A stretch of DNA of 64,000 bases from assembly GCA_038042445.1 (NCBI GenBank), contig JBBTED010000021.1, positions 68,085-132,084 of the forward strand, read 5' to 3'. The position numbers were made by a program, and so were the translations under genes. This document shows positions 3,763 through 52,640 of the stretch, in pieces. How positions within the stretch are numbered: position 1 is the stretch's first letter; each line of letters starts with the position of its first letter. Origin of the DNA: Candidatus Firestoneibacteriota bacterium. GTDB taxonomy: Bacteria; Oederibacteriota; D2-FULL-39-29; JBBTED01. Below the pieces are notes generated by a model that was not told the origin of the DNA, made no database searches, and worked only from the letters and a program-made list of their open reading frames with translations.

Positions 3763-3913
3763 TTAGATTTCTCAAATTTATTCACACCTTCTATTTGCCT
3801 AAAGGACATTTTTAATTTGGCAGACAGTGTCTGCGAAATCTCTTTAGAAGATAAAGCTTTGCTCCCCTGTGTTTTTATAATAACAATTCTCCTCATTTAA
3901 TCCCCTACTAAAC

Positions 3914-5657: not shown

Positions 5658-5683
5658 AAAATTTCTCCTTTTTTAAAGTTAAA

Positions 5684-9344: not shown

Positions 9345-9354
9345 ATTTTAGTAG

Positions 9355-11688
9355 TTAAAAAATAAATATTTCGCTGTCCCAATCCTTCGAATCCGGCAGA
9401 AGGCCTATACCTGGTTTGTAAAGCCCGGTTGCTTTCTGTACCCAGTAGCCGTGAATGTCTTCAATATAATCTCCACGCTTTAATTTTTCAAAAACCGGCA
9501 AAGGCACATTTACAATAAATCGCTGTAACTTTCTGATTATCCAACGTTCGGGTCCTTTGTTACGAAGATAATCGATAAAAGTCAGGCTGTTATTTCCCTT
9601 TCCTTGATACCAGACAATAATGCTTCTTTGAACTGTATCGTCTATAAGCCTTACATCCTGCGCAAAAGTGCGAAACTGGAATTTGAATTCTCCAGATTCT
9701 TTTACAAGTCTTTCTTGAAATTTTGGTTTGTCAAAATTATTTACATATCCATAAAAATTTTTAAAATATTCAGTATATAGAATTGGCTGTAAATCATGTA
9801 TAGGATAATTGCGTAAAACGCTTTTTGACGCATCCTCGCCCTTACGAAGAAGACCTGTAGGCGCTGACTTAGGCGGTTGAAAAACCACCATTTTACCCAT
9901 ACATCCCTCGTTATTTAATTTACCTTCACGATTACACCTGCCGGCCGCCTGAGCTATTGAATCCATGCCTGCTAAAGCACGATAAACAACTGGAAAATCA
10001 ATATCCACACCAGCTTCAACAAGCTGAGTGCTGACAACGCGGACAGGCTCACTATTTTTAAGTTTATGTTTAACTGACGATATAATTTCGCTTCGTTCTT
10101 CTCCGCACATATTTGCTGATAAATGTATCGTATCTTTCGGCATTAAAGCATGCAGATCGCGACAATCCTGACGTGTATTGACGATGCAAAGCACTTGTTC
10201 ATATTGCGCAAGCTGTTTCGCAACGTCAGGCCACTCCATACGTTCATCAAAATTTGGAGGTTCAATTTTAACTCTTTTGAATGACTTTGCAAGTTCCTCT
10301 GGATTGTCTATTATCTCAGTTACGTTTGACAGTCCTTCAAATACAGCCAGACCACTGCCGATTTTACCGCATAAAGCTGGCTGTGTAGCTGTACACAATA
10401 TAACCGTAACTCCAAAATATTTAACTAAACCGCGCAAAGTTGAAAGTATCGGTTCAAGATATTCCGGCGGCAACATTTGAGCTTCATCAAGAATAATAAC
10501 ACTATTAACAATATTATGTAATTTCCTGCATGACGATGTACGAAAAGCAAGCAATGATTCAAAAAGCTGGACATTAGTGGTAACTATTATAGGCACATCC
10601 CAGTTTTCAGAAGCAAGCCTGCTTTTATTATCTTCCTTATCCGGGTCAATATTACTGTGATGTTCAAGCACTGAATCCTCTCCAAATAATATATTTCCAC
10701 TTTTAATCGATTCAATAATTTTTTCTTCATCATCAGTTCCATATTTATAAACTTTTGCTGTTTGCTCAATTATACTTGTATATGGTATAGCCATAATAAT
10801 CCGCTGTTTACCATATTTTAACGCATGTTCCAAAGCAAAGGCCATTGAAGAAAGAGTTTTTCCCCCGCCAGTTGGAACAGTAAGAGAGAAAAATCCCGGA
10901 GATAATACTGCTTTTTTGCGACAAGTATCAAGTATAATGTTACGCTGTTTATTAATCTGTTCAGAAAAATCTTTTTTATTTTCCATAAACCGGTCAAAAC
11001 GTTCTTTTAAGGTTTTAATAGTTGGATAATTTCCACGAAGAGCAATTTTATTTTTATCCGATTCCATAAAAATTTCCGTATTAAGGAAATCCGCGTCTAC
11101 AAGGCATGAAAATAGCATTCGTATCCAGAGATGAAAAAATTCTTTACGATTTTCCATATCCTCCGGTTGTGATATATTAAGCGGTGTGGATTTTGGTAAA
11201 TTCTTATTAATAAACTCCTGCGATTGCTCAATTAAATTAATTTGGTCAAATTCTTTTTTATTTAAAATCCCTGAAAGCGGATCTGAATAAATACGATTAA
11301 TTAAATCACCACCTGCATTATCAGGACTCCAATCCGGCAATCCTGCATGATGACCAGCAACAATATAAGCAATAATCCGAGCAATAGCAGGATTTTTTAT
11401 GCGTGAAAATGCCAGAACTGCTCCAACGGTACTATGATTTGGACGCCATCCATAACCTTCTATATGTGCGTCTTCATCATATCCTGATGCTTTAGAAAGA
11501 TGTTTTTGCCAATCAGGAAGATATTTTCCCATATCATGCCAAAACCCCACAAGTTCAGCCCAATCTTGATTGCCAAATTCAGATGCGAATTCTTTTGCCT
11601 TTTTTGCTGTTTCATCAAGATGTTCTTTTATAGTCTGAGTTTCCCATTGTCCTAGTTCGTTTTTCTTTACATGTGCAAAATCTTTCAT
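9355..11688 (-). CDS. cas3: CRISPR-associated helicase/HD nuclease Cas3
   Basis: N-terminal HD domain (WHDMGKY...HSTVGA...AGHHAGL) followed by a DEAD/DEAH helicase (TGGGKT Walker A, DEAQ). Start taken at MKDFAHV (11688) to avoid overlap with the upstream gene; the track ORF extends to 11766. Confidence 0.9.
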   Translation of the reverse strand: MKDFAHVKKNELGQWETQTIKEHLDETAKKAKEFASEFGNQDWAELVGFWHDMGKYLPDWQKHLSKASGYDEDAHIEGYGWRPNHSTVGAVLAFSRIKNPAIARIIAYIVAGHHAGLPDWSPDNAGGDLINRIYSDPLSGILNKKEFDQINLIEQSQEFINKNLPKSTPLNISQPEDMENRKEFFHLWIRMLFSCLVDADFLNTEIFMESDKNKIALRGNYPTIKTLKERFDRFMENKKDFSEQINKQRNIILDTCRKKAVLSPGFFSLTVPTGGGKTLSSMAFALEHALKYGKQRIIMAIPYTSIIEQTAKVYKYGTDDEEKIIESIKSGNILFGEDSVLEHHSNIDPDKEDNKSRLASENWDVPIIVTTNVQLFESLLAFRTSSCRKLHNIVNSVIILDEAQMLPPEYLEPILSTLRGLVKYFGVTVILCTATQPALCGKIGSGLAVFEGLSNVTEIIDNPEELAKSFKRVKIEPPNFDERMEWPDVAKQLAQYEQVLCIVNTRQDCRDLHALMPKDTIHLSANMCGEERSEIISSVKHKLKNSEPVRVVSTQLVEAGVDIDFPVVYRALAGMDSIAQAAGRCNREGKLNNEGCMGKMVVFQPPKSAPTGLLRKGEDASKSVLRNYPIHDLQPILYTEYFKNFYGYVNNFDKPKFQERLVKESGEFKFQFRTFAQDVRLIDDTVQRSIIVWYQGKGNNSLTFIDYLRNKGPERWIIRKLQRFIVNVPLPVFEKLKRGDYIEDIHGYWVQKATGLYKPGIGLLPDSKDWDSEIFIF

Positions 11689-11699
11689 TTTAAACCTTT

Positions 11700-13070
11700 T
11701 TACCCTACGATGCCGTAGGTTCTTTGTTTGAAATCTACGGCTAATTCTTTGGCTATGTTCTTGCATTGTTCTATATCTACTGATGGTGCATCAACAGCAG
11801 TAACTACAACTTTTGGGATATGTTTTTTGCATTCCAGGATAAACTTTTTCATTTCATCATAAATAGAAACAGATTGCGCAAATTGACTCTGACAAAGTTT
11901 GTCATACTTGTCAGCAGTATCTGTATTTAAACTTATTGAAATTGTATCTATATACCTCGCAAGTTCTGGAACTATATTCCTATTATGTATCATATTTCCA
12001 TGACCATTAGTATTTATTCGCAAACGAATTCCTTTTGCCTTGAAAATTTTAGCGCTTTCCAAAATCAAATTCAAACGTATAAGAGGTTCTCCATATCCGC
12101 AATAAACTATTTCATCATAGTCATTTGGATTTTTCACCTCATTCATTATATCCTCAATTGTTGGTTCACGCTTTAATCTAAGATTATGACCTCGAACAAA
12201 ATCACTGTTATACCTCGCGCAAAATGTACAAGTATTTGAACAACGATTTGTTATATTTAAATATAATGAATTACGAATTTTATAAGATATTTTACTTGCT
12301 TCTTCAACACCAACTCTAAATAGATATTTCGCATTTATTGTTGTCCAATGTTCAACTTCAGCTAATTCTATGTTTTTAAGTTCTGCTATTTTTTGGGCTA
12401 CCTCTACAATATATGATGGCTCATTTCTCATACCTCTTTTAGATTGTGGAGGAAGATATGGAGCATCTGTTTCAAGTATTATCCTATAAATAGGTAATAG
12501 TTTTATTGTACTTTGCAATTTGACAGAATTAGGATAAGTGATTGTTCCTCCAATTGAGAAATAAAAACCCATATCCAAACATTCTTTCATCATCATCTCA
12601 TTGCCTGAAAAACAATGTAAAACTCCACCTATTTCCTGCGCATTTTCTTCTTTTAAGATTCTCAAAACATCGTTATGGGCATCTCTATCATGGACAACAA
12701 TTGGAAGTGCCAATTTATGCGCTAATTTTATCTGTGCCCTAAAATTTTTCTCCTGAGCTTCTTTTGAAGTAGTGCTTCTATAGTAATCCAACCCAGTTTC
12801 ACCAATTGCTACAACTTTTGGATTTTTGCCAAGAGCAAAAAACTTATCATAAGTTTCCTCTGACATAGTATTGGCATAATGCGGATGCACACCTATTGTT
12901 GTATAAATATTCTCGTATTTTTCAGATAAAGCAATGGATTGAATACTACTTTCAAGACAAGTGCCTATATTTACCAAATAATCTACACCTGATTCTTTTG
13001 CCCTGCGAATAACATCCTCGCGGTCAGAATCGTATTTTTTATCTTCTAAATGTATGTGTGTATCAATCAT
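11700..13070 (-). CDS. TatD-family metal-dependent DNase fused to a TatD-associated radical SAM domain
   Basis: N-terminus MIDTHIHLED...GETGLDYY...ETDAPYL is TatD hydrolase. The C-terminal half has the radical SAM motif CSNTCTFCAR and a glycine-rich SAM-binding region. Both fused in one 456-aa ORF. Confidence 0.75.
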   Translation of the reverse strand: MIDTHIHLEDKKYDSDREDVIRRAKESGVDYLVNIGTCLESSIQSIALSEKYENIYTTIGVHPHYANTMSEETYDKFFALGKNPKVVAIGETGLDYYRSTTSKEAQEKNFRAQIKLAHKLALPIVVHDRDAHNDVLRILKEENAQEIGGVLHCFSGNEMMMKECLDMGFYFSIGGTITYPNSVKLQSTIKLLPIYRIILETDAPYLPPQSKRGMRNEPSYIVEVAQKIAELKNIELAEVEHWTTINAKYLFRVGVEEASKISYKIRNSLYLNITNRCSNTCTFCARYNSDFVRGHNLRLKREPTIEDIMNEVKNPNDYDEIVYCGYGEPLIRLNLILESAKIFKAKGIRLRINTNGHGNMIHNRNIVPELARYIDTISISLNTDTADKYDKLCQSQFAQSVSIYDEMKKFILECKKHIPKVVVTAVDAPSVDIEQCKNIAKELAVDFKQRTYGIVG

Positions 13071-13072
13071 AA

Positions 13073-14374
13073 TTAAGATCCTGAAACAAGTTCAGGATGA
13101 CCTTCTCGGGTTATTTTTGAAATTGCGTCTGTGAAAAAATCTTCTGTTCCGAAGCCTCCTGATTTTAGCACTAATAACATCTCTTTTTCCATTGCTAAAC
13201 TTACAGGAACACCAGGTTGAATTTCTTTAAGAATTAAACTGCAAATTATTCCCAATTTTCTGCAAACAGTTACTGCTGTATCTCCACCTGCAATAATTAA
13301 TTTTGTTATATTGATTTTTTTAGACACTTTAAATACAGTTTCAGCCAAAACTTCTGATACTTTTTCGCATATAGTTTTTATATCTGCATCCAGTTCTTTA
13401 GTTTTTTCAATAATACCTTTATCTAAAGCTGAAGTTATCAAAACATTTTTACCTGACTTAATTAAATCTATTGTAGCATCAATTATTGTATTTATCTCAA
13501 TATTAAATTTGTCAGGATCAGACCATAACAGATTTGTATTTATCTGAAATACTTCTATATCATTTTTTTTTGCGAATAAAGTTTGTTTTCTACTTACTTC
13601 TGTAGCACTACCTACTACTATTAGAGTTCCTAAGGTGTCATTGCTAACTTGTTTCGGAATTTTACATATAGATTCTGAAACAAGTTCAGAATGACAAGGT
13701 AATTCTTCTGCTAATGCAGAACTACCTGCAAATACAGGCATATCAGAAACAACTTGCGCTATAATTTTCAAATCATCTTGCAACACTGTGTCTATTATTA
13801 CTATCTGAAATTTATTTTTAGCAGTTTCAATTGCTTCTTTTAGTTTTGCAACTCCATCCCTTACTATATCTAATGTTATTAAACCCACTTTTAATTGTGT
13901 TTGTGAGCTTATTATTTTTGGCAAATACGAATCTTTCATTGGATGAATTATATCTTTATTTCTTTCTGTGTTTTCTAATAATATTTCATTTATATAATGA
14001 TACCCGTTTTTAGTAGTTCTATTATTTTTAGGAAATGCAGGAACAAGAATAATAAATTTACAATTACATTCATTCATAACAGCTTCTATTTCTGAACCTA
14101 TGTTTCCTCTGAGTGTAGAATCTATTTTTTTATAAATAAATTTGCATCCCAATGATAATAATTTATTCGCAGCTTTCTTAACTTTTTCATAAGCAAGATT
14201 TTTATCATCATATCTGCTATTTGTATCAATTATTATAACATCAGTCTTATCAGTATACTCAACTATTTTGTCCATTGCTTCAAATAAAAACACTCTGGTT
14301 ATACACCCATTTTTTGCAAACATTGAACCAACATCATTTGCACCAGTTAAATCATCAGCAATAACACCAATCAT
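13073..14374 (-). CDS. Four-carbon acid sugar kinase family protein (DUF1537/OtnK-like)
   Basis: N-terminus MIGVIADDLTGANDVG matches the YgbK/OtnK family; two-domain length of 433 aa. Contains two in-frame palindromic repeat copies (see findings). Confidence 0.7.
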   Translation of the reverse strand: MIGVIADDLTGANDVGSMFAKNGCITRVFLFEAMDKIVEYTDKTDVIIIDTNSRYDDKNLAYEKVKKAANKLLSLGCKFIYKKIDSTLRGNIGSEIEAVMNECNCKFIILVPAFPKNNRTTKNGYHYINEILLENTERNKDIIHPMKDSYLPKIISSQTQLKVGLITLDIVRDGVAKLKEAIETAKNKFQIVIIDTVLQDDLKIIAQVVSDMPVFAGSSALAEELPCHSELVSESICKIPKQVSNDTLGTLIVVGSATEVSRKQTLFAKKNDIEVFQINTNLLWSDPDKFNIEINTIIDATIDLIKSGKNVLITSALDKGIIEKTKELDADIKTICEKVSEVLAETVFKVSKKINITKLIIAGGDTAVTVCRKLGIICSLILKEIQPGVPVSLAMEKEMLLVLKSGGFGTEDFFTDAISKITREGHPELVSGS

Positions 14375-14415
14375 AATTTTTTTATTGCCGATAAATCGGC
14401 AACTACATTACCTTT

Positions 14416-16875: not shown

Positions 16876-17045
16876 AATTTTTCTTTCCTAAATTTCCACT
16901 TTCAAAACTGTGTCATAATGAGAATATTACGCGTTTTGTCATGCTGAATTCATTTCAGCATCTAATAAATTTGTTTTTAGACCCTGAAACAAGTTCAGGG
17001 TGACAAAAAACCGCTTATGACACAGTCTATTTCGTAGAAATGACA

Positions 17046-19490
17046 TTATTTCAACATTGCTTTTGCTTTAATTATATTTTCTTTTGCGTCTTTATGGCTT
17101 GGATTAATTTGTAGCGCTTTCTCCCAGCAGGAAATTGCTGTTTTTAAATCGCCTTTTCGTCCATAGGCGCTTCCCAAATTATTATATGCATCTGGATTAT
17201 TTGAATCAAGTTTAATTGTTATACTAAACTCCCTGATAGCATCTTCAACTTTTCCCTTAGAATAATATATTATACCCAAATTACTATGCGCCTTTTTATG
17301 GTTTTGATTAAGCCCAAGGACACGTATATATTTCTCTTCCGCCAAATCTAATTTCCCCTGTTCCAAATACATATCTCCAATATTGCAATGTGCATCTGCC
17401 TGTTCAGGATTTAATTTAATTGCTACATTATACTCATCATACGCTTCTTTTCTCTGTCCTGTTTTATAATAAACATTCCCTAAATTATTATGCGCATCTG
17501 CATAATCTTGTTCAAGTCCTATTGCCTTTCTAAAATTAACCATTGCTCTATCAAATTCTTCTTTTTCTAAATACGCAACTCCAAGATTATTATACGCAAT
17601 TGCATTTTTAGGATTTGCTGCAACTATTCTTTCGTAGTCTTTTATAGCTTCGTCTTTATTTCCTCTTAAAACTGACAGTGAAGCTAAATTACTTTGCATC
17701 CATTCAATATTACGAGCAAGTTCCATAGCTTTCCTATAATTTTCATTGGATTTATCATTTTCTTTAGTGTAATGGTAATATTCACCTAAACCAAAATAAT
17801 ATCTTGCCACCATTTCTCGCGCCAAAAAATCTGACAATATTTCTGAATCATTTATGCCATTTAATTCATAATTTTTCCAGTAATTTTTATTTTTTACACT
17901 ATCCTCTTCCCAAGGTCTAATAACCCTGTATAAAACACCTGCAGGCATTGTAATTAAACCCTGTATTTTTTGCATATTACTTCCTAAAGTAAAAAATATT
18001 GGCTCTTTTCTTGAATTAATTATTTCTTTCTGCTTATCTCTCATTTTTTTATCACGTTCAGATTTATCCATAAAAAGCAAACCCTCACCATAAATATTTG
18101 TAAAAATACAACCGAAGTCATCATAAATAGTAACATCATTTCGGACACCTTCTGCCAATCTAAGGTATGAAAGTAGAAATACAGGATTATCACCTCTTGA
18201 AAATAATATGGAATTTGGTTCTAAAGTCCGCAAAATATTATTTGCAAAATTATATGCCACATAATTTTTACTCTTATCATTAACCGAATAATTATGTTTA
18301 AAAGACAGTATCAACAGAACAAAAAGAATACCCATTAAACCAATCCGTATAAATTTATAGTTTGTCTTCGAAATATCCCACAAATATTTGATTCCAAATG
18401 TTATCCATATTAAAATAATAACGTATGATGGAATAAAAAATATCTGAACCAAATAAAGATCCTTTTCTATTATTTTAAAGTTCAAAAGCAATATAAAACC
18501 TATACTCAAAAAAAGAAATGCGATTACAGAAAAAATCAAATATTTTTTGTCATAAACTATCTTCAGAAAACCAAAAATAATAAATACAAGCAAAAAAGGA
18601 TTAAACTGATCAAATAAAAAATTTGCATAAGCAAAGCATTGTTTTAAAAATAACGCTATAGACCTTGGCTCTTTAGCCAAAACCCCATATTGTTTCCGCA
18701 AAACGTGAAATATAAAATTATTAAATGAATCAGGATTCCCCCAATCCAATAACGGATTTGCCAAAGAACGAATTGGCAGATACATTTGTATACATATACC
18801 TAACAAAAAAAATCCGATTATTTTATAAATCCCCCTCGACCCATCTTTTAGATGGGTGCCCCGCCCTTTTTCAAAGGGGGAACTACTATTTTCTTTATTA
18901 TTAAGTAAAAGATACAGCACAAGAAGAGGCGCAAATAACGTCATTGTATGATGGGCAGCTAAACTAACACCATAGACTAATGAAAGCAAATAAAGATATT
19001 TATCCCCATCTACATTTCTTACTAAACTATTCTTCCATAACATTAAAATGTACAATTCAAGAATAACAAAAAATGTAGTTATTATATATACTTCAGAAAC
19101 CACTATTTGCGACCAAAAACTATTTGAAAACGCAAAATATAACGCTATTACTCCTGAAATAAAAACAATAGTATTGTCTATTGAAATTTTTAAAATTATT
19201 GTTAATGTTAGAATCAATAATTTATAGAATATAAAAACCGATACTGCTGCAAAAAATGCATTCATCAAATTGACTTGAAATGCAATACTGCCAAATGGCA
19301 AAAAAGTAAATATTTTTCCGAATATACAAAACAGTGGGTAGCCAGGAGGATGAGGAATACCGAGTGTATAAGCGCCAACAACAAGCTCACCATTATCACC
19401 AACAAAAACTGTCGGGCATATAGTTTTTAAAAACACGAAAAACGAGATGAGAAATATAAGAATTCCAAATATAAGAATTTTTGTTTTCAT
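17046..19490 (-). CDS. DUF2723 (GT-C-like) membrane protein with C-terminal TPR repeats, paralog 2
   Basis: 814 aa, collinear with the upstream paralog (TICPTVFVGDNGELV...GIPHPPGYPLF). Carries an extra 13-aa in-frame insert (~25 aa replacing ~12) encoded by a GC-rich palindrome (18831-18880). Confidence 0.7.
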   Translation of the reverse strand: MKTKILIFGILIFLISFFVFLKTICPTVFVGDNGELVVGAYTLGIPHPPGYPLFCIFGKIFTFLPFGSIAFQVNLMNAFFAAVSVFIFYKLLILTLTIILKISIDNTIVFISGVIALYFAFSNSFWSQIVVSEVYIITTFFVILELYILMLWKNSLVRNVDGDKYLYLLSLVYGVSLAAHHTMTLFAPLLVLYLLLNNKENSSSPFEKGRGTHLKDGSRGIYKIIGFFLLGICIQMYLPIRSLANPLLDWGNPDSFNNFIFHVLRKQYGVLAKEPRSIALFLKQCFAYANFLFDQFNPFLLVFIIFGFLKIVYDKKYLIFSVIAFLFLSIGFILLLNFKIIEKDLYLVQIFFIPSYVIILIWITFGIKYLWDISKTNYKFIRIGLMGILFVLLILSFKHNYSVNDKSKNYVAYNFANNILRTLEPNSILFSRGDNPVFLLSYLRLAEGVRNDVTIYDDFGCIFTNIYGEGLLFMDKSERDKKMRDKQKEIINSRKEPIFFTLGSNMQKIQGLITMPAGVLYRVIRPWEEDSVKNKNYWKNYELNGINDSEILSDFLAREMVARYYFGLGEYYHYTKENDKSNENYRKAMELARNIEWMQSNLASLSVLRGNKDEAIKDYERIVAANPKNAIAYNNLGVAYLEKEEFDRAMVNFRKAIGLEQDYADAHNNLGNVYYKTGQRKEAYDEYNVAIKLNPEQADAHCNIGDMYLEQGKLDLAEEKYIRVLGLNQNHKKAHSNLGIIYYSKGKVEDAIREFSITIKLDSNNPDAYNNLGSAYGRKGDLKTAISCWEKALQINPSHKDAKENIIKAKAMLK

Positions 19491-19596
19491 TTTTTATCAG
19501 AAACGGACAACATGTTTAACATCGTAGTTGCCGATTTATCGGCATTATTCAAAACAATGACCACAACGCCCATAAATGGGCAACTACATTGTCTAA

Positions 19597-24414: not shown

Positions 24415-24473
24415 ATTTAAGTTAGTTAAAACGCCGATAAATCGGCAACTACATAATTCGTTTTGCGTTTTAT

Positions 24474-30032: not shown

Positions 30033-30854
30033 CTACTTTTTCACCTCGTAGTCATAGAAAAACAACTGCTGACCGTATTTTTCTCTTCCGAAATTTTCAA
30101 CTATTTCCTTTGTTTTTGCAGAAAGCAAAAAATCAAGAAGTATTTTCGCACCCTTTTCATTTACTTTTGAAAATTTTTGCGTATTAACAGGTATTAAACT
30201 ATATAAATTTAACAAATTTTTGTCGTTTTCGAACAAAATGGTTAGACTCAAATTTTTCTTCAAAGAAAGATATGAAGAACGATCAGCCAAACAGTATGCT
30301 TGTTTTTCATCTGCAATTCTTACAGTAGCCGCCATTCCCTGGCCTACTTCAACATACTTTTCTTTATTTGGAGTCCTTTCAGCAATTTTCCAGATTTTTA
30401 GTTCCTTCTTATGTGTTCCAGACTGATCACCGCGAGATACGAACAAAACTGCTTTTTCAGAAATAATTTTAAAAGCATTAGTAATACTCTTTGCAGTCTT
30501 AACTCCTGCAGGATCATTTGCAGGTCCCAAAAGCACAAAATCGTTATGCATAAAAGTTGTACGACTTATTCCATAACCTTCTTCAACAAATTTTTTTTCA
30601 TCGTCAGGACTATGCACCCATAAAATATCTGCTTCTCCATTCATTCCAAGTTTTATTGCCTGTCCTGTTCCAACAGCAATAGGCTTAACTGTATAACCAG
30701 TTTCTGTAGTAAATTTTTCCAGCAAAACATCAAGTAATCCTGTATCCTGCACACTTGTAGTAGTAGCAAGAATGATTATTTTGTTCTCCTGTGCTATTAA
30801 CGGTATTGCTATCAGCATTAAACCCAAAAAAAACAGCATTATTTTCTTAAGCAT
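30033..30854 (-). CDS. Periplasmic oxyanion-binding protein (TupA-like tungstate/molybdate binding protein)
   Basis: Signal peptide. TTTSVQDTGLLDVL...FEKETG and the PBP fold resemble TupA/WtpA-type binding proteins; 273 aa. Confidence 0.6.
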   Translation of the reverse strand: MLKKIMLFFLGLMLIAIPLIAQENKIIILATTTSVQDTGLLDVLLEKFTTETGYTVKPIAVGTGQAIKLGMNGEADILWVHSPDDEKKFVEEGYGISRTTFMHNDFVLLGPANDPAGVKTAKSITNAFKIISEKAVLFVSRGDQSGTHKKELKIWKIAERTPNKEKYVEVGQGMAATVRIADEKQAYCLADRSSYLSLKKNLSLTILFENDKNLLNLYSLIPVNTQKFSKVNEKGAKILLDFLLSAKTKEIVENFGREKYGQQLFFYDYEVKK

Positions 30855-30933
30855 AGCTTTCTCCTATTCAAATCCCCCTATTTCCCCCTTTTTCAAAGGG
30901 GGACTAAAGAGGATCCTTAAATTATATAATTTA

Positions 30934-32040
30934 TTAATAGTTTATCTGTACCATCGCGTTAAACTTATTGTTATTTAAAATATTGTCATCCTTCACAAGA
31001 TAATCCACCAAAAATCTCACAGATTTGTCTGCATAAATATTTACTCCTACAGTATAATAGGATAAATATTTACCATCCCAAATATTTTCATCCCATCTTT
31101 CAAGTCTCACTACAGGAGCAATTAACGACAAATCAGAAGATAGCAATCCAAATGGCTTACCTTCCAGAGTAATTATTGCATCCATAACATCAGAAACTCC
31201 AGTTGAGTTTTTGCCTGCTATATACTCAAGAGTAAAAAACACCATATCTGTCTCATATTTCCCTGACACTCCGTAATGGGTCTCATATTTGCTTCCTGTT
31301 GCTATATAACGATTATAATCAGAAACACTAAATTCCAAATCATTCATAGGTTTTGTAATAAGATACGCGGAGAAATCCTTCATACCATCTGTTTCTGACG
31401 CATAAGTAGTACCATTTATTACCGCAATTCTCCACGAAAGAAGATTTTTGAGACTCTCTCCAGGAAGATTGCCATATAACTGAACGCCATAATCATATTT
31501 TGATGTAATCACCTTAGACATAGATTGCGGTGTATCAAAAACTTTTGATTTTGATGCAGGATAATTGTTCTCAAAACTAAACGGAATTATATATTGCCCT
31601 ATCTTCACCTTTAGCAAGTTTTTATCAGCAACAAAATCTGCCCATAACTCCTTAAATGTAACTGTAGACAAAGATATTGCTGATGATGAAAATTCAGGTT
31701 GTATTTTAAATTCTGTCCATTCATTTAATTTCCAGCTAAATCCCACTCTCGCTGTTTTTATTGCAAACGGTTCCTTTCCTCCAAGAGTAGGATCACTTGT
31801 ATATGAAAATTGAGAATACCCTGAAATTTTATAAACTGGGGATGATTTTTTTATTGCTTCATCAGTTTTATTCTTTTCTGCCTGAACCAAAAGTTCATTT
31901 GCAGTCTTAATATCTTTGCCCTCCAATTCAGTAAGCTGACCTTTTTCAACAAGTTTATCTACAAGAATGTCACATTGTCCTGCAAAAAGATTTGTACTAC
32001 AAATTACTATTACCGCTACTAAAACCATAAACTCCTTCAT
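30934..32040 (-). CDS. Putative outer-membrane beta-barrel porin
   Basis: Signal peptide MKEFMVLVAVIVICSTNLFA, alternating amphipathic beta-strand pattern, C-terminal ...MVQINY aromatic terminus. Confidence 0.45.
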   Translation of the reverse strand: MKEFMVLVAVIVICSTNLFAGQCDILVDKLVEKGQLTELEGKDIKTANELLVQAEKNKTDEAIKKSSPVYKISGYSQFSYTSDPTLGGKEPFAIKTARVGFSWKLNEWTEFKIQPEFSSSAISLSTVTFKELWADFVADKNLLKVKIGQYIIPFSFENNYPASKSKVFDTPQSMSKVITSKYDYGVQLYGNLPGESLKNLLSWRIAVINGTTYASETDGMKDFSAYLITKPMNDLEFSVSDYNRYIATGSKYETHYGVSGKYETDMVFFTLEYIAGKNSTGVSDVMDAIITLEGKPFGLLSSDLSLIAPVVRLERWDENIWDGKYLSYYTVGVNIYADKSVRFLVDYLVKDDNILNNNKFNAMVQINY

Positions 32041-32139: not shown

Positions 32140-32193
32140 ATAGTCGCAAGCTTTAGCTTGCGGTTTTTCCCGCAGGCTAAAGCCTGCGACTAC
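32140..32193. repeat. MITE-like palindromic element (family D), copy 1
   Basis: TAGTCGCAAGCTTTAGCTTGCGG-N8-CCGCAGGCTAAAGCCTGCGACTAC. The two 24-nt arms are inverted copies, each a local hairpin. A second copy is at 39751-39820 and a half copy at 44247-44269. Confidence 0.7.
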
Positions 32194-32641: not shown

Positions 32642-34039
32642 TTATAGATATGAAATTTTGACACGTTTCTTCTTTTTATCGGTTGGTTCATTGCTTTCTT
32701 CTACTTCTTCTGTATCTTTACCTTTATCTTTTTCTACAATTTCTTCTTCTTTCTGTGCAAGTAAAATATATGCATTGTGTAGTTTTTGCCGAATATCAGT
32801 ATTCTTAGGATCTTTTTTTAGAATTGTTCTATATAATTCTATCGCTTTTTCAATAAAACCATTTTTAATGCTTTCCTCTGCTTTGAAGTGCAAAAAATCT
32901 ATATCATCTGTAGAACTAATAGTTTCTTTAGGCGATTCAACTTCAGATACAACAGAAGTATTTTCTACAACAGGTGCTTTAGGAATTGTTCTCTGCACAT
33001 CTTGCTTTGCTGAAGAAACTGTTTGAGTAATTCCTCCTCCTGATTCTAATGCGTATAACTTTGTTTTAGCATCTTCACAATTAGGATCTAAATTTAATAT
33101 CTTTTGATATATTTGCTTTGCAGAATCAACATTCTTATTTTTAACATATATACCGGCTAATGCTAAATACTGGGTAACAGCACTATCAAGTTTGCCAAGT
33201 GTTTCATAGAAATTTGCGCATTTAGTTCTACCATCTACATTTTCTGGAGATAATTTTATAATTTTATTATATATTTCTTCTGCTTTGTCAGGACTATTCT
33301 GTTTTATAAAAATATTTATAATATTAAGATAGGCAGGAACAGCTTCCCGCATAGAACCTCTTTTTGCATAAACATCTGCCAATCCTTCCAATGCATCTAT
33401 ATCATCAGGTTTTGTTTTTAATATCTTCTCAAATACAGAAGTCGCATCTGGGAATTTACCAATTCTAAGATAAACCGTTCCAAGTTTTGAAAGCGCTTCT
33501 AAATGAGACGGTTTAAATTTTAAAAGATATTCAAATGCATTTATTGCTTCTTGCCATAATTCATGTTTAAATGTAACCATTCCAAGAACAAATTGAGCTT
33601 CAATACTTTTTAGTTCTATTGCTTTTTTAGCATACTCTTCTGCTTTATTTAAATCGTCTTTTTTAAGATATGCCTCTGCAATATTTAAAAATTCTATTTT
33701 AGCTTCCCGTTGCATACCCTCTTTAGCATATAAATCAACCAACTTAACTCTTGTATCCAAAGCTTCAGAATCAAACTCTAAAACCTTTTGATAAAATTTT
33801 ACTGCTCCTTTGTTAAGCTTGCTATCATAATAAGCATTAGCAATAAAAAGATATTGTTCTGCTGCTTTGGAATTTAAACCTTTAGCAGCATAACATTCAG
33901 CCAATTTTAAAACTACATTAGCATTTTGTGGATCAAGTTTCAAAGCTTCTTCAAAAAGAGAAATGGCTTTATCCATATCTCCACTTTGAAAACAGGCACT
34001 TCCATCATCCAATAATTTCTTAATATCTTCCTGTGACAT
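32642..34039 (-). CDS. TPR repeat protein with acidic/basic C-terminal tail
   Basis: Multiple TPR motifs over 465 aa. The C-terminus is EE/KK-rich low complexity. Confidence 0.6.
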   Translation of the reverse strand: MSQEDIKKLLDDGSACFQSGDMDKAISLFEEALKLDPQNANVVLKLAECYAAKGLNSKAAEQYLFIANAYYDSKLNKGAVKFYQKVLEFDSEALDTRVKLVDLYAKEGMQREAKIEFLNIAEAYLKKDDLNKAEEYAKKAIELKSIEAQFVLGMVTFKHELWQEAINAFEYLLKFKPSHLEALSKLGTVYLRIGKFPDATSVFEKILKTKPDDIDALEGLADVYAKRGSMREAVPAYLNIINIFIKQNSPDKAEEIYNKIIKLSPENVDGRTKCANFYETLGKLDSAVTQYLALAGIYVKNKNVDSAKQIYQKILNLDPNCEDAKTKLYALESGGGITQTVSSAKQDVQRTIPKAPVVENTSVVSEVESPKETISSTDDIDFLHFKAEESIKNGFIEKAIELYRTILKKDPKNTDIRQKLHNAYILLAQKEEEIVEKDKGKDTEEVEESNEPTDKKKKRVKISYL

Positions 34040-34138
34040 AATTTTTTAAATATGGTCTGTGTTTTTCCACCAGACCATATTTATCTGGTAATATATATCT
34101 TGTTTTGTGAAAAGTCAAGCTCATAAATAAATCCCCCC

Positions 34139-35191
34139 TTAATCCCCCTTTAACAAAGGGGGTATGGGAGATTTATTAAACCATTGAATAAATTTGCCTA
34201 CTCGCTCTTTAATTATAGAATTAGCTTTTTCAAGCTCCTGCTCTCTATCAGCTATATTCTCATTCACTATTTTTTGCAAATCATCAATATTATACAAATA
34301 AACATTTTCTATTTTATTAACTTCTTCATCTATATCTCTTGGCACAGCAAGATCTATAAAAAATATTGGTCTGTATTTTCTTAAAGGCATTATGGTTTTT
34401 ATATCAGATTTATGAATTATATAATTTTGGGCACTCGTAGAACTTATAACAATGTCAATCTCTCTGATCTTTACAAACTTATCTTCAAATCCAACTGATT
34501 CACCATTAAACTTTTGCGCAAGTTCATCTGCACGAGATATCGTCCTATTGGCAATATAGACTTTTTCAACTCCACGCTCCTGCAAATATTTAAGTGCTAA
34601 TTCACTCATTTCGCCTGCGCCAATTACCATAACTTTTTTGCCTATTAATTCTCCAAATATACGTTCTGCCATATCAACAGCAACAGAACTAAGAGATAAT
34701 GCTCCTTTATTTATACCAGTATTTGCACGAACATATTTACCCGCACCTATAGCATTCTGAAACAAAACATTCAAATATTTAGACGTAAATTTATTAGCCT
34801 GCGCTATAGAATATGCTTTTTTAACCTGACCAAGAACTTCATTTTCACCAATTACCATAGAATCAAGACCACTTGTAACTTTAAAAAGGTGTTCTACTGA
34901 ATAAGGGATTGAATGATAAAAAAATATCTTTTCCAGTTCTGCAATATCTAATTTACCTACTTCAGAAAAAAATTGCTTTGTTTTTTTTATAGTGTCATTT
35001 AAATCCAAAGTTGTACAATATATCTCTGCTCTATTACATGTAGAAAGAACAACACATTCTCCCAAAGAAACTTCTGATTTAATCTTTTCAAGAAAATATA
35101 TTAGTTTATCTTCCTGTATAGAAAATTTTTCTCTTATTTCTACTGGAGCCGTCTTGTGATTTACACCAAAAACCATTATATTTGGATTCAT
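34139..35191 (-). CDS. hemA: Glutamyl-tRNA reductase
   Basis: VLSTCNRAEIYC active-site Cys motif, NAD(P)-binding GAGEM; 350 aa. The last 7 codons (PPLLKGD) are encoded by a GC-rich palindromic repeat. Confidence 0.9.
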   Translation of the reverse strand: MNPNIMVFGVNHKTAPVEIREKFSIQEDKLIYFLEKIKSEVSLGECVVLSTCNRAEIYCTTLDLNDTIKKTKQFFSEVGKLDIAELEKIFFYHSIPYSVEHLFKVTSGLDSMVIGENEVLGQVKKAYSIAQANKFTSKYLNVLFQNAIGAGKYVRANTGINKGALSLSSVAVDMAERIFGELIGKKVMVIGAGEMSELALKYLQERGVEKVYIANRTISRADELAQKFNGESVGFEDKFVKIREIDIVISSTSAQNYIIHKSDIKTIMPLRKYRPIFFIDLAVPRDIDEEVNKIENVYLYNIDDLQKIVNENIADREQELEKANSIIKERVGKFIQWFNKSPIPPLLKGD

Positions 35192-36233: not shown

Positions 36234-38519
36234 TTACCAGTTATATTTTAAACCGATGTAGCCAACATGTGCCGTAAAATCCCTAAGGCTGTCGCCCAAA
36301 AAAATTGCGTTGGGACTAGAAACACCGGCTGCTGTTAAACCTGCGACAACAGGGACATTCTCAACGGCAAAATCCTCAACATCAAAAATAGTCAGAATGT
36401 AACCTCCCACCAAAACCAATCCTTCACCAATCGTATATTCCGGACGAATAGCTAATTCCTGGAGTGCGCTCTTGGTATCTGCTGGATCAGTTTCAACCAC
36501 AGTAGTTGTTCCTGGAATATCGCTGACTGTTATTTTTCCCTTGCCTATGGAATAATTGTATCCCACCATAAGACCTAATTTGGACAAAGGAGAAAAATTC
36601 ATATCAACACCGATAGTATGAAAAATATCATTATTTGTAGCTGTCCAATCATTTGCTGCATCTTGAGTAAGCACTGCGCCTGAGACATTAGACCGTTCTG
36701 TTGACTTAACATTTTGGATGTCATAAAGTAAAGAAATATCGAAAGTTTCATCTAACATCCAATCTGCACTTACTGTTCCACCCTGAGCACTGGATTCCAG
36801 AATACCGTACATATAATTGGTATTAGTAGCAATACCACCAGTTAAATCACCTATACCTGGTTTATATTTATCATCACGGTTAAATGCAGCAAGAGAGAGT
36901 CCAATACCGCCAAGGTCTGTCCATTGAACAGTACCCTTAACTTCGTTTCGGTCCCTGTCTGCCACATCCACCCGACGCAATCCAGGAAGCTCAATCAAAT
37001 CGCCTGCAGAGTTTTTATAGTCACTAATCTCAAAATCATCCATTCGCCTTAATCCCAAAATATAACCAGCTCGGACAGAAAACGAGGAAACAGGTCTATA
37101 GACCAGAGTTCCACGCAAAACACTTTCCTTTGTCTTTTCCACCTCACGTTTTGTTCTTTCCATAATCTCAAGACCACCACCAGCCGAAGCAGTCACATTG
37201 GAAAATACATCCATATCAATATCCACATCCAGATTTTGTCTATGAGGACTATAAACCTTGCTAGTATAAATGCTTGAACTCCAGTTCTGGTCAGCGGTTG
37301 CTTTTCCAGGAAAAACGATTTCCACGGTCTTGTTGCTGACTACTTCGGAACGATAACCAACCCTTGTACCCAAAGAATCCCACGGTCTACTGCTTAAAAT
37401 ATAGGATTGATTAAAAATTCCCCTATTACCATTTAGGCTTGAAACAGGCAATGCAGTCGGATCATAGGCATTAACCGTAGGATTGGCATAAGATCCCGGA
37501 ACAATGGCTGTATTAATAGTATAAGGAAGAAAAATTGCGTTTTGTGTCAAAAGAGCATAACTCAAAGTGGTATGAAAATAACTGTTTAATGGAAGATCGA
37601 GCATATTCACGTTAAATGTAGCCATATGCTGAGTATTGTCTGGATAAAGTGAAGTCCGTCCGGATTTTGAATTCGTACCACCACTATAACCAGAGGCAGA
37701 AGCTTGATCAGTCAATCTTTTGGGATTATCCCAAGTCATTTCTGTTACCTTATTGTGAAATAAAGAATATTCGTAAGCAAGATCCACATTCCAATTTTTT
37801 TGCGTCAAAGATGTGTCCAAAGAAAACTTGGTTGTTTCATAATCAACAGGTTCAGGCAACTCAATTGTGAAAAAGCCCAAAGTTCCTCCAATTGCCTTGG
37901 TTCCGGATTTATTCTCACGATTTGCGCTAATTTTGAAGCCAACATCACCCAAACTGGGAAGACCAATATCAAACCCATAGGAATCTCTAAGCAACTTGAG
38001 GGGTACCGCATTTGTATTTTTGGCTAAATCCAACAACAGATCATTGGTTGTGGGAGACGTGGTAGTTGTGGATGCCTGTAGTTTCCGCTGTATCTCATCG
38101 GATAGAGTAAAAACTCCAGCACTGATTTCCGAAAAAGGCGTCCTTGAAATAAGACTAAGAGAATGAGGTGTCTTGTCCCACCATGCGCTAAAGGACAACC
38201 CATTTTCTCGTTTATAAAGAAACCTGGCGAACTGATCATCTCTCATCACGTTTTTAGCAGTGAAAGAAATACCATAATCTGGGCTTTCAAAATCAAGCCT
38301 GTATTTGTTAATAGAAAGCCCTTTAGGAATAACCCGGTATTCTTCAAATTTAGCTTCTTGAACGTCAAGGTTTTTATAGTTAAAACCAAACTCAATCTCC
38401 TGCTTGACGTTTTCCGCGGCAAAAAGAGACCCCGTCATAATTACGAGTGCACACAAAAACAGTATTCGCATTTGTTTTCCCCTCCTCATTAGATTTATAA
38501 CTTCTTCTTCAATTTCCAT
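36234..38519 (-). CDS. MtrB/PioB-like large outer-membrane beta-barrel (porin-cytochrome conduit sheath)
   Basis: 761 aa. Signal peptide (MRILFLCALVIMTGSLFAA), beta-strand periodicity throughout, C-terminal ...GYIGLKYNW. Immediately downstream of a decaheme cytochrome in the same operon. Confidence 0.5.
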   Translation of the reverse strand: MEIEEEVINLMRRGKQMRILFLCALVIMTGSLFAAENVKQEIEFGFNYKNLDVQEAKFEEYRVIPKGLSINKYRLDFESPDYGISFTAKNVMRDDQFARFLYKRENGLSFSAWWDKTPHSLSLISRTPFSEISAGVFTLSDEIQRKLQASTTTTSPTTNDLLLDLAKNTNAVPLKLLRDSYGFDIGLPSLGDVGFKISANRENKSGTKAIGGTLGFFTIELPEPVDYETTKFSLDTSLTQKNWNVDLAYEYSLFHNKVTEMTWDNPKRLTDQASASGYSGGTNSKSGRTSLYPDNTQHMATFNVNMLDLPLNSYFHTTLSYALLTQNAIFLPYTINTAIVPGSYANPTVNAYDPTALPVSSLNGNRGIFNQSYILSSRPWDSLGTRVGYRSEVVSNKTVEIVFPGKATADQNWSSSIYTSKVYSPHRQNLDVDIDMDVFSNVTASAGGGLEIMERTKREVEKTKESVLRGTLVYRPVSSFSVRAGYILGLRRMDDFEISDYKNSAGDLIELPGLRRVDVADRDRNEVKGTVQWTDLGGIGLSLAAFNRDDKYKPGIGDLTGGIATNTNYMYGILESSAQGGTVSADWMLDETFDISLLYDIQNVKSTERSNVSGAVLTQDAANDWTATNNDIFHTIGVDMNFSPLSKLGLMVGYNYSIGKGKITVSDIPGTTTVVETDPADTKSALQELAIRPEYTIGEGLVLVGGYILTIFDVEDFAVENVPVVAGLTAAGVSSPNAIFLGDSLRDFTAHVGYIGLKYNW

Positions 38520-39750: not shown

Positions 39751-39820
39751 GTAGTCGCAAGCTTTAGCTTGCGGTATTATAGCTTTTACCATTTTTCCGC
39801 AGGCTAAAGCCTGCGACTAC
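39751..39820. repeat. MITE-like palindromic element (family D), copy 2
   Basis: GTAGTCGCAAGCTTTAGCTTGCGG-N22-CCGCAGGCTAAAGCCTGCGACTAC; same 24-nt inverted arms as at 32140. Confidence 0.7.
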
Positions 39821-44246: not shown

Positions 44247-44269
44247 CGCAGGCTAAAGCCTGCGTCTAC
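44247..44269. repeat. Family D half element (single arm)
   Basis: CGCAGGCTAAAGCCTGCGTCTAC matches the right arm of the 32140 and 39751 elements. Confidence 0.55.
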
Positions 44270-44713: not shown

Positions 44714-44979
44714 ATATATTATATAGCTGCAGAGCAAAGCTCTGCTAAAAAACAGCAAAGCTTTCGCTTTGCTGCTACATAAACCATACAAAATCCATTA
44801 AATATTAGAATGGTTAATCTATTATACATTATTTATGCAAGAACTATGCCAATTTTTTAATGTATTATAAAATGTATTGAAATTACTGTAGTTATATTGA
44901 TAAATTTAATAGTTAATAGAAGAATATTACCATAGATAATTGTATTGTTTTAGGACAATATTTGAATAGTTGTATTATT

Positions 44980-46350
44980 TTAAGACAAATCTTTAGATAT
45001 TGAATATTGCTGGATTTTCCTATAAAGAGTATCTCTGGATATTCTTAATATTTCAGCAGCTTTTAATTTATTTCCATTTGTAGATTTAAGAACTGAAATT
45101 ATAGCAGATTTTTCTGATTCCTCAAGGGAACATACTTTTACAGTATCAGAATTATTAGTTTCTAATACTCGCATATGCGAAGGTAAATCCTGTTCAACAA
45201 AAATATTTTTATTCACTTTAATTGCGAATAAACCTTCTATTAAATTTTCCAATTCACGAACATTGCCTGGCCAGTTGTATTTTACTAAAACATCCAATGC
45301 TTCACGTTCAAAACCCTCTACTTTCTTTTTGTATTTATCATTAAATTTATCAATAAAATATTTCACAAGAAGTGGAATATCTTCTTTTCTTTCTCTAAGT
45401 AGAGGAATTGTGATAGTAATAGTGCTTAATCTATAGTACAGTTCCTTTCTTATGCCACTTTTATTTCCATCAGAAATTATATTATGCGATGATGCAGCAA
45501 GAATTCTTACATTTACAGCTATTTCTTTTATATCACCTACAGGCCTTATTTTTTTGTCCTGAAGGACTCTTAAAAGTTTTGCCTGACTTTCCTTTGGCAT
45601 TTCACTAATTTCATCAAGCAATATTGTCCCTCCTTCACTTGCTCTGAATATACCTATATAATCCGAATTCGCACCTGTAAAACTTCCTTTTTTATAACCA
45701 AAAAGTTCACTCTCAACAAGATTTGAAGGAATACCTCCACAATTTATCGGCATAAATGTATTATTTTTTCTATTACTTAAATTATGTATTGCTCTTGCAA
45801 CAAGTTCTTTTCCAACACCAGTTTCTCCAAGTATCAAAACAGGACAATCTACAGATGCCGATGCCCTTATTCTATCAAAAACATTTTTCATTAATTTACT
45901 TTCTCCAATAATATTTTCGATGCTATATTTCGAATTAAGCTGGCTCTGTAAATGAGCAACATCAGTCTCAAGTTTCATTATTTTAAATAAGCGATTAATA
46001 CAAATCATAATCTGATCTTTAGTAAAAGGTTTAATTATATAATCAGAAGCTCCCATTTTTATTGCTGTAACTGCATCCTGAATTGTTCCATAACCAGTCA
46101 TCATAATAACTTCAATAGCAGGACTATGTTCTTTGATTTTTTTCAAAAGCTCAAATCCATTCATTTGACCCATTCTAATATCGGTTATAATAATTTTAAC
46201 GTCCTGCTCAATCTTGATTTTCTCAATAGCTTCCTCACCAGAATATGCCTTAACAGTAGAAAATCCCTGTCTTAAAAAAAGTTTTGCGCAGGTCTCTACC
46301 ATACCCTTATCATCATCAACAATTAAAATTTTTATCATATCATGTATCAT
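44980..46350 (-). CDS. Sigma-54-dependent response regulator (NtrC family), paralog 2
   Basis: REC, AAA+ sigma-54 activator (GETGVGKE...ESELFGYKKGSFTGA) and HTH domains; 456 aa. Confidence 0.9.
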   Translation of the reverse strand: MIHDMIKILIVDDDKGMVETCAKLFLRQGFSTVKAYSGEEAIEKIKIEQDVKIIITDIRMGQMNGFELLKKIKEHSPAIEVIMMTGYGTIQDAVTAIKMGASDYIIKPFTKDQIMICINRLFKIMKLETDVAHLQSQLNSKYSIENIIGESKLMKNVFDRIRASASVDCPVLILGETGVGKELVARAIHNLSNRKNNTFMPINCGGIPSNLVESELFGYKKGSFTGANSDYIGIFRASEGGTILLDEISEMPKESQAKLLRVLQDKKIRPVGDIKEIAVNVRILAASSHNIISDGNKSGIRKELYYRLSTITITIPLLRERKEDIPLLVKYFIDKFNDKYKKKVEGFEREALDVLVKYNWPGNVRELENLIEGLFAIKVNKNIFVEQDLPSHMRVLETNNSDTVKVCSLEESEKSAIISVLKSTNGNKLKAAEILRISRDTLYRKIQQYSISKDLS

Positions 46351-46403
46351 GCTGAATTTATTTCAGCATCTCTTTTAGACCCTGAAACAAGTTCAGGGTG
46401 ACA
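46348..46403. repeat. Family A two-hairpin palindromic repeat, intergenic copy 2
   Basis: CATGCTGAATTTATTTCAGCATC ... GACCCTGAAACAAGTTCAGGGTGACA. Near-identical to 16938-17005. Confidence 0.75.
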
Positions 46404-46423
46404 ATTCAAAGCTTGTCCTGAAT

Positions 46424-48361: not shown

Positions 48362-48394
48362 AATTTTATTGCACCCATTCAATAAACATATTTG

Positions 48395-48455
48395 TGTCAT
48401 CCCGAACTTGTTTCGGGATCTCAAAAAGAGATGCTGAACCAAGTTCAGCATGACA
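48395..48455. repeat. Family A-related two-hairpin repeat (variant, stems with compensatory changes)
   Basis: TGTCATCCCGAACTTGTTTCGGGATC ... GATGCTGAACCAAGTTCAGCATGACA. Sits between ilvB and ilvN. Confidence 0.6.
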
Positions 48456-48496
48456 ATTCATTTTAGCAGAGCTTACGCCTCTGCCGCTACAATTAT

Positions 48497-51887: not shown

Positions 51888-51935
51888 AATATCTCCTTTA
51901 ATTGACAGACGAGACGTCTGTCCTACAATAAATAA

Positions 51936-52540: not shown

Positions 52541-52640
52541 TTCTCCCAGCTGTAGGGAACAAAAATTTTTGTTCCCTACTTACAATAACAACTGTCTAAA
52601 ATGGCTCACTTATTATTTTAATTAATATTGCGAATTAAAG

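Follow-up and report, generated by a model that had tools for sequence, protein, structure and literature searches.

The closest described relatives of the repeat treated here are the BoxC elements of Escherichia coli, which were re-described as PIT elements and then as TM_ECO (Holder 2015, PMC4666352, citing Bergler 1992, Bachellier 1999, and Hoyne/Maher 2000). TM_ECO has the consensus CCCTCNCCC N3-6 GGGNGAGGG N3 GGGNGAGGG, occurs in 23 copies in strain K-12 and in 3,610 copies across 262 proteobacterial genomes, and has neighbors that belong to no functional class of genes (PMC4666352). TM_ECO forms a stable triplex in vitro and is associated with rearranged loci (PMC4666352). Among repeats of this kind, folding into an intrastrand triplex has been demonstrated in the literature for TM_ECO only. 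The present work concerns family B, a repeat with three copies (B1, B2, and B3) in a 64,000-nt stretch of DNA, hereafter the window, from a Candidatus Firestoneibacteriota bacterium (GenBank assembly GCA_038042445.1, contig JBBTED010000021.1, positions 68,085 to 132,084 of the forward strand). As judged from its sequence, family B is a class II purine-motif "potential intrastrand triplex" repeat, that is, a new sequence family of a known kind, and we consider it likely that its units are gene-less, that the window copies are derived insertions, and that these repeats are non-autonomous partners of a DUF559 nuclease. This reading draws on the anatomy, over-representation, coding overlaps, and cross-phylum distribution of the repeat, as well as on three observations from other genomes: DUF559 genes are bracketed by the repeat, the resulting modules have discrete edges, and the repeat diverges together with the protein.

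In overall organization, these repeats resemble the REP/REPIN repeats and their RAYT proteins (Nunvar 2010, PMC2817692; Bertels & Rainey 2011, PMC3116915; Di Nocera 2013, PMC3733652), with short palindromes, inverted doublets, a small nuclease gene between two inverted repeats, repeat-protein co-evolution, and occasional copies inside genes. The triplex repeats differ in bearing no GTAG or CGTC tag and in possessing an extra third domain, and their protein is the PD-(D/E)XK, Vsr-like DUF559 rather than an HUH tyrosine transposase; as the nuclease fold differs from that of RAYT, the DNA chemistry, if any, must differ as well. DUF559 has been placed in the Vsr clade of PD-(D/E)XK nucleases, grouped with Vsr/DUF2726 (Steczkiewicz 2012, PMC3424549), and the Vsr-like homing endonucleases (I-Bth0305I, PDB 3r3p; PMC3424549) offer a parallel in which a small nuclease of the same clade is a selfish, self-propagating gene. 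Those endonucleases reside in group I introns or inteins, whereas the DUF559 gene is free-standing between structured repeats, and the DUF559 protein gave no sequence match to 3r3p at E<0.01.

The window has a guanine-plus-cytosine (GC) content of 27-40% and carries the majority of its genes on the minus strand. The three hairpins proposed in the initial annotation all exist: two of them, at 34144-34162 and 30884-30902, pair perfectly over an 8-bp stem closed by a 3-nt loop, but the third, also described as perfect, contains a single mismatch in its stem (CGCCCTTT...AAAGGGGG) and spans 18862-18880 instead of 18859-18880. The expected number of hairpin matches, from 100 dinucleotide-preserving shuffles of the window, is 0, in agreement with the annotation's description of a repeated element atypical of the local composition. 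The hairpin of about 19 nt that had been taken for the unit is present but incomplete, as a third, G-rich domain that defines the unit had been missed; on the minus strand, every copy reads CCCCCTTT, a 3-nt loop, AAAGGGGG, a spacer, and then GGGGGATTT downstream of the hairpin. The plus-strand word AAATCCCCC occurs at 18827, 30870, and 34129 and nowhere else in the window. On the other side of the hairpin, B1 and B3 carry the degenerate, partly complementary segments AAATCTCCC and GGATCCTCT, respectively, which generate nested hairpins of 46-47 nt, and the 26-nt spacer of B2 holds a second hairpin, ACCCATCTAAAAGATGGGT (18857-18839). A porin-like gene (30934-32040, minus strand) and a periplasmic binding-protein gene (30033-30854, minus strand) are separated by 79 nt, the greater part of which is taken up by B3, so that the copy annotated as intergenic is indeed so. 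No inverted doublets of family B are found in the window, no further copies in about 4 kb of contig extension, and nothing relevant in a literature search with the element's sequence strings; Rfam, at its gathering threshold, reports two tRNAs only in the window.

Class II repeats are defined by a 5' pyrimidine arm, a loop, a complementary purine arm, a second loop, and a third domain antiparallel to the purine arm, with G.G.C, A.A.T, and T.A.T triads allowed and stems of at least 6-8 nt containing at most one mismatch (ITxF criteria, Holder 2015, PMC4666352). A class II scanner of our own, applied to both strands with 8-nt stems and at most one mismatch, picked out the three family-B sites of the window and no others, B1 being detected on both strands, and gave 0 matches in 20 shuffles. 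All three copies thus conform to the rule with 8-nt stems, B2 with one Watson-Crick mismatch. The G/T-rich third segment, GGGGGATT, is mirror-symmetric to the purine arm AAAGGGGG, which pairs with the pyrimidine arm CCCCCTTT, and together AAAGGGGG and GGGGGATT give five G.G.C, one A.A.T, and two T.A.T triads in antiparallel orientation. The loops measure 3 and 5 nt in both B1 and B3, while the second loop of B2, at 26 nt with a hairpin of its own, exceeds the 1-6 nt of the definition. When single-stranded, a family-B unit could fold as a hairpin with a reverse-Hoogsteen third strand, although the third domain might be conserved for a different reason, namely because it is recognized by a protein or pairs with the complementary segment at the opposite module end. 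Only two G-runs are present per unit, and a G-quadruplex was rejected by inspection.

Family B shares with BoxC/PIT/TM_ECO the succession of pyrimidine arm, loop, purine arm, short loop, and G-rich mirror domain, and repeats of the family-B kind likewise have 8-9-nt stems, solo units and inverted pairs, strong over-representation, and loops less conserved than stems. The two differ in sequence (C5T3/A3G5/G5ATT in family B versus CCCTCNCCC/GGGNGAGGG), and the window copies (CCCCCTTT/AAAGGGGG/GGGGGATT) accordingly fall outside the TM_ECO consensus. They differ also in host, family B residing in the 30-33% GC genome of an uncultured groundwater bacterium, and in placement, two of its three copies overlapping coding sequence where TM_ECO is reported always to be intergenic. 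Moreover, published work describes TM_ECO without an associated mobility gene, whereas relatives of family B bracket DUF559 genes.

The overlap with coding sequence is most pronounced at hemA, which encodes a short, 350-aa form of glutamyl-tRNA reductase without the C-terminal dimerisation domain PF00745. As annotated, the element encodes the HemA C-terminus: the protein ends in ...SPIPPLLKGD, the final seven codons lie within the hairpin of B1, and the TAA stop (34139-34141) lies within its spacer. The identical HemA protein is encoded by four independent assemblies. When the ortholog comparison suggested in the annotation was carried out, PPLLKGD was found in 0 of 24 aligned HemA homologs (the nearest about 50% identical), the tails of which are short and variable after a conserved F..W motif; judged on this alignment, the element-encoded tail is lineage-specific. 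It appears to substitute for the native tail rather than to lengthen it, because the protein has 350 aa against mostly 344-347 aa in short-form homologs. Short HemA homologs of about 345 aa are numerous in uncultured lineages such as the Elusimicrobia. A weak likeness of the tail to the start of the long-form dimerisation domain (IPPLLK versus ITPIIK) raised the alternative of a domain remnant, which was set aside as coincidence because the DNA fits the hairpin-spacer pattern common to copies elsewhere; among these, B1-like parts recur as the hairpin CCCCCTTTGTTAAAGGGGG in locus L015 and as the spacer ATTAA in L008 and L018.

The second overlap, also anticipated in the initial annotation, involves one of two DUF2723 paralogs, the open reading frame of which reads in frame through B2 and translates it as SSSPFEKGRGTHLKDGSRGI. 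The two paralogs (42% identity) could not be aligned to each other clearly enough to give the length of the insertion, which was settled with 20 homologs: the inter-helix loop bearing B2 is 12-13 residues longer than in 19 of the 20 (paralog 1 and 19 others). The palindromic elements of Rickettsia, reportedly described by Ogata et al. in 2000, are said to be comparable in being palindromic, located in frame within protein-coding genes, and translated, and to differ in their length of about 100-150 bp and their confinement to Rickettsia. To our knowledge, they have no triplex-type third domain, and we know of no nuclease gene associated with them. The coordinates of the copies and their host genes are collected in Table 1.

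Table 1. Family-B copies, their parts, and the genes that they overlap (window coordinates).
Feature	Position	Strand	Composition or basis
Copy B1, "closed" 46-nt unit	34129..34174	-	Hairpin, scanner matches on both strands, and fold
B1, outer segment	34174-34166	-	AAATCTCCC, then ATA
B1, Y domain	34162-34155	-	CCCCCTTT, followed by loop GTT
B1, R domain	34151-34144	-	AAAGGGGG
B1, spacer	34143-34139	-	ATTAA, containing the hemA TAA stop (34141-34139)
B1, third-strand domain	34138-34129	-	GGGGGGATTT
Copy B2, long-spacer variant inside DUF2723 paralog 2	18827..18886	-	GTAGTT, CCCCCTTT, GAA, AAAGGGCG, 26-nt spacer, GGGGGATTT (18835-18827)
Copy B3, intergenic	30870..30916	-	Degenerate GGATCCTCT, TTAGT, CCCCCTTT, GAA, AAAGGGGG, AAATA, GGGGGATTT
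hemA, glutamyl-tRNA reductase	34139..35191	-	Pfam GlutR_N, Shikimate_DH
DUF2723/TMEM260-like TPR protein, paralog 2, host of B2	17046..19490	-	

The notion that the family is specific to this lineage had to be abandoned, since numerous bacterial phyla share the motif. When GTDB genomes, one for each species (596 Gb), were scanned with the 23-base pattern CCCCCTTTNNNAAAGGGGGN{3,33}GGGGGAT, at least 120 stretches matched, against about 0.5 expected by chance by our own arithmetic for that volume of sequence. The matches listed include Desulfobacterota, Nitrospirota, Omnitrophota, Ignavibacteria, Chloroflexi, Patescibacteria, Methylomirabilota, Beta- and Gammaproteobacteria, and others. Within the 120 loci listed, a fuzzy pattern identified 227 units, of which 126 are solo and 62 form 31 inward-facing doublets with 2-64-nt spacers; these loci further include 13 "closed" sites, in which two units share one hairpin as in B1, and a few pairs of units separated by 366-421 nt. 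Variants that resemble B2 in having a long spacer with a hairpin inside it recur in L014, L037, L040, L050, L101, L125, L168, and L201.

Clustering of the open reading frames in the 120 loci listed yielded only generic families, with the exception of a recurrent small protein beside the motif. This protein of about 120 aa is DUF559 (Pfam PF04480, E 1e-31 to 1e-35), and its closest solved structure is 3HRL, an "endonuclease-like protein". In L076, L083, L116, and L052, the unit pairs spaced by 366-421 nt enclose the DUF559 open reading frame and bracket it precisely, in the order hairpin, GGGGGATTT, open reading frame, AAATCCCCC, hairpin. In the reverse test, similarity to the DUF559 protein was the sole basis on which 80 metagenome loci were retrieved: a sense-strand class II motif is present in the 130 nt upstream of the gene in 55 of 78 loci, an antisense-strand one downstream in 63 of 74, and on both sides in 46 of 72, as opposed to 0/780 and 0/740 with shuffled flanks. 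The upstream and downstream sequences form an inverted repeat above the 99th percentile of controls in 52 of 69 DUF559 loci. DNA homology between loci covers the gene and extends little further: of 47 locus pairs, 44 lose it no more than about 69 nt upstream and 43 no more than about 80 nt downstream. The DUF559 module is a discrete unit of roughly 430-470 bp found in unrelated contexts. Protein similarity and flank similarity are correlated (Spearman rho 0.585; 0 of 999 Mantel permutations reach this value), and divergent DUF559 lineages carry different repeats that keep the triad rule (CTCCCTCT/AGAGGGAG/GAGGGAGA, CCTTCCCC/GGGGAAGG/GGAAGAGG, and, in L203, the TM_ECO type).

Several modules show additional features. 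In L137, L142, L149, L151, and L165, GGGGGATTT lies 3-5 nt before the DUF559 start codon, where it may double as a ribosome-binding site. Positions 5211-6250 of L106 are made up of tandem copies that repeat about every 275 bp, each consisting of a triplex unit and a DUF559 gene fragment (residues ~31-76); a full DUF559 gene is located elsewhere on the same contig.

Cultured organisms provide further instances. Scanner-detected motifs flank the DUF559 genes of Deinococcus proteolyticus and Synechocystis sp. B12, and in Neisseria gonorrhoeae they lie about 190-300 nt downstream of the gene; the motifs in Pseudanabaena and upstream of the gene in N. gonorrhoeae, which fall below the scanner's 8-nt threshold, were read by eye. 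In E. coli K-12, the DUF559 gene is ycjD (b1289), the last codons of which are TM-like (TCACCCTCTCCCTGA), and TM_ECO #9 (1,351,204-1,351,239) lies downstream at a distance of about 170 nt, beyond a second, partial copy of the 3' end of ycjD. This partial duplicate (GGAGACGGTGCTGGAGAATATTC...; L205 8245-8410, K-12 1,351,244-1,351,409) suggests a past rearrangement at the module. Of 5,426 complete genomes of E. coli, 3,346 contain the ycjD region and 2,080 lack it, and the published distribution of ycjD comprises phylogroups A, B1, and C. A B2 strain has 1-2 copies of TM_ECO, most strains of A/B1/C have 19-30, O157:H7 has 11, and phylogroups D and F have 12-15 and 6, respectively (Holder Table S7, PMC4666352). 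The B2 strains, with few copies, do not carry ycjD and the A/B1/C strains, with many, do, a pattern that fits a link between nuclease and repeat abundance.

All three copies in the window most likely arose as derived insertions: one would have replaced the last codons and the stop of hemA, one would have expanded the loop of the DUF2723 paralog in frame, and one would have landed between two genes. Judging by the other genomes, the repeats would be non-autonomous partners of a small DUF559 (Vsr-like PD-(D/E)XK) nuclease gene, with a master copy of roughly 430-470 bp composed of motif, gene of about 350 bp, and inverted motif, and with short inverted doublets, "closed" units, and solo units as its gene-less derivatives. 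The nuclease would cut at or near the structured repeat and thereby copy or maintain it, triplex formation would matter to the process, and the genome of the window would have, or have had, such a nuclease. The annotation's term "selfish" is accordingly plausible, the evidence for it coming from other genomes rather than from the window.

Several considerations weigh against this explanation. DUF559 was not found in the window (by tblastn and in gene tables covering part of the window) or in about 4 kb of contig beyond the window's left end; as the window copies are gene-less with no DUF559 nearby, this genome is linked to DUF559 only indirectly. Identity to the closest homologs of HemA and DUF2723 is no higher than 40-50%, and the ancestral, pre-element states of the two genes are inferred rather than observed. 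The reverse-test loci were the 80 closest relatives of seeds that had themselves been found beside the motif, and the motif-flanked fraction across all PF04480 may be lower. Two bracketing architectures exist: the third-strand domain faces inward in modules of the C5T3 type, whereas those of Deinococcus, Synechocystis, and L202 have it facing outward. An all-against-all blastn of the loci revealed no empty-site/filled-site pair, and a candidate clean empty site in E. coli was rejected, as strain S88 has the eefRABCD operon at the ycjD locus with no motif at the junctions. With respect to miniature inverted-repeat transposable elements and DDE-type insertion sequences, the modules possess inverted ends, and no target-site duplication was seen by eye at the three inspected (L076, L083, L116). 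No biochemical activity is known for DUF559, and no mobility genes have been reported near TM_ECO sites (Holder 2015, PMC4666352). Finally, the E. coli count correlation is confounded by phylogeny, with few independent events, and phylogroups D, E, and F hold 6-15 TMs even though most of their strains lack ycjD at this locus.

The alternative that survives best, though we think it unlikely, holds that the repeats are host-beneficial DNA structures (serving in replication pausing, as recombination hot spots, or in supercoil absorption) and that DUF559 is a caretaker or repair nuclease, controlled by these structures or working on them, rather than a spreading agent. Preservation of the triad rule across very different sequences would suit such a role, as would the in vitro triplex and the more rearranged loci that TM_ECO marks; TM_ECO is, moreover, not found on transposons, phages, or plasmids (PMC4666352), and DUF559 homologs are rare on plasmids (33 of 72,556 records, mostly chromids or mislabelled chromosomes). 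A caretaker gene, however, needs neither inverted bracketing copies with homology ending at the repeat edges in unrelated contexts nor co-divergence with the repeats. Copies that overwrite a C-terminus and a membrane-protein loop resemble tolerated insertions, not selected sites, and the Maher follow-up reportedly found no in vivo effect (via PMC4666352).

An improbable reading places the function at the RNA level, where the hairpin in the transcript would terminate transcription, stabilise the 3' end, or regulate translation at the ends of genes. Each of the three copies has the same orientation as the genes around it, the nested hairpins of B1 and B3 are predicted at -29 kcal/mol (z -3.4) and -27 kcal/mol, respectively, with B1 spanning the hemA stop, and the placement of GGGGGATTT just ahead of several DUF559 start codons (ATG) resembles that of a ribosome-binding site. 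The strong terminator-like stem described in the initial annotation did not hold up, as the stems are followed by ATTAAGGGG and AAATAGGGG with no T-tract and a terminator scan made no call at any family-B site; the preference for gene 3' ends came down to a single case. One copy sits in the middle of an open reading frame, and both orientations relative to genes occur in other genomes. Furthermore, a simple hairpin would have no use for the conserved third domain, RNA does not form triplexes of the purine-motif type (PMC4666352), and earlier work summarized in that source found no promoter or terminator activity in the E. coli relatives (PMC4666352).

Very improbable, in our estimation, is that family B is a classical REP/REPIN family mobilised by RAYT. 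Other hairpin families of the window carry a 5' GTAG tag and in some instances form inverted doublets, B2 happens to follow GTAGTT, and the 31 short-spacer doublets (2-64 nt) among the motif loci listed, together with the gene bracketing, mirror the REP-RAYT pattern. The tag is nonetheless confined to B2 (B1 has CATA and B3 TTAG), the gene bracketed elsewhere encodes DUF559 rather than a Y1 transposase, and neither a Y1_Tnp domain nor a RAYT gene appears in the gene tables for the window (covering ~2.1-45 kb and 54-61 kb); membership was rejected on the missing tag and the different associated protein. Chance similarity of three GC-rich hairpins, for which only the small copy number speaks, is hardly credible given the 0 matches expected in shuffles, the third domain common to the copies, and the identical motif in the many stretches found elsewhere.

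The surroundings of the copies contain further features. Directly after B1, a minus-strand sigma-70-like promoter match (34090-34118; TTGACT-17-TATATT, 10/12) precedes a TPR gene (32642-34039), and a 10-bp hairpin lies near B1 at ~34050-34085. Just upstream of a cytochrome c assembly gene and hemA, an MtrB/PioB-type outer-membrane protein gene (36234-38519 and upstream; L001 5712-8958) adjoins a multihaem cytochrome gene, a combination that suggests extracellular electron transfer in this groundwater bacterium. Several other GC-rich hairpin families, preceded by GTAG on one of the strands (e.g., GTAGTTGCCGATTTATCGGCAA, GTAGTCGCAGGCTTTAGCCTGCG), occur at 14385-14402, 19566-19583, 24431-24448, 32145-32188, 39756-39815, 44247-44264, 44729-44774, 51904-51922, and 52552-52579; the sites at 32145-32188 and 39756-39815 are inverted doublets, and these hairpins fit GTAG-tagged REP/REPIN elements. 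Another palindrome family, GTCAyyCTGAACTTGTTTCAGrrTCT (13075-13118, 13635-13712, 16940-17021, 46340-46419, and 48394-48471), tends to occur together with another, related hairpin, lacks a third domain of the triplex type, and is probably the "family A" of the initial annotation. A CRISPR array of at least 12 repeats (GTTTCAATCCACGCGCCCACGCGGGGCGCGAC, period 66-67) at 1475-2249 adjoins a type I-C cas operon at 2731-11766 (Cas3, Cas5d, Csd1, Cas7, Cas4, Cas1, Cas2), in which a DUF1016/YhcG-family (PD-(D/E)XK-like) gene (7405-8619) is inserted between cas5d and csd1.

For the host, the window copies indicate that a structured repeat of 46-60 nt can rewrite a protein C-terminus together with its stop, as in hemA, and enlarge a membrane-protein loop while leaving the gene intact. 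More broadly, BoxC/PIT/TM-type repeats and DUF559 could constitute an unrecognised partnership of many phyla akin to REP-RAYT, with very small nuclease modules (about 430-470 bp) whose ends could form structured DNA of the triplex type, and of which thousands of orphan repeats, including the window's three and the 23 of K-12, would be gene-less derivatives; we judge the case for this wider proposal to be evenly balanced. A statement of the repeat-DUF559 link was not found in the open-access literature, and a prior description elsewhere is possible. The BoxC/PIT/TM repeats of E. coli were first described three decades ago and have since been shown to form triplex DNA and to mark unstable loci, with no explained origin, spread, or function, while DUF559 (E. 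coli YcjD; PDB 3HRL), a family with a nuclease fold and a wide distribution, has been assigned no function. The bracketing, the module edges, and the co-divergence connect the two, and both questions are testable in E. coli through ycjD and TM_ECO. If true, the partnership would provide a function for DUF559/YcjD and an origin for repeats that have been unexplained since 1992.

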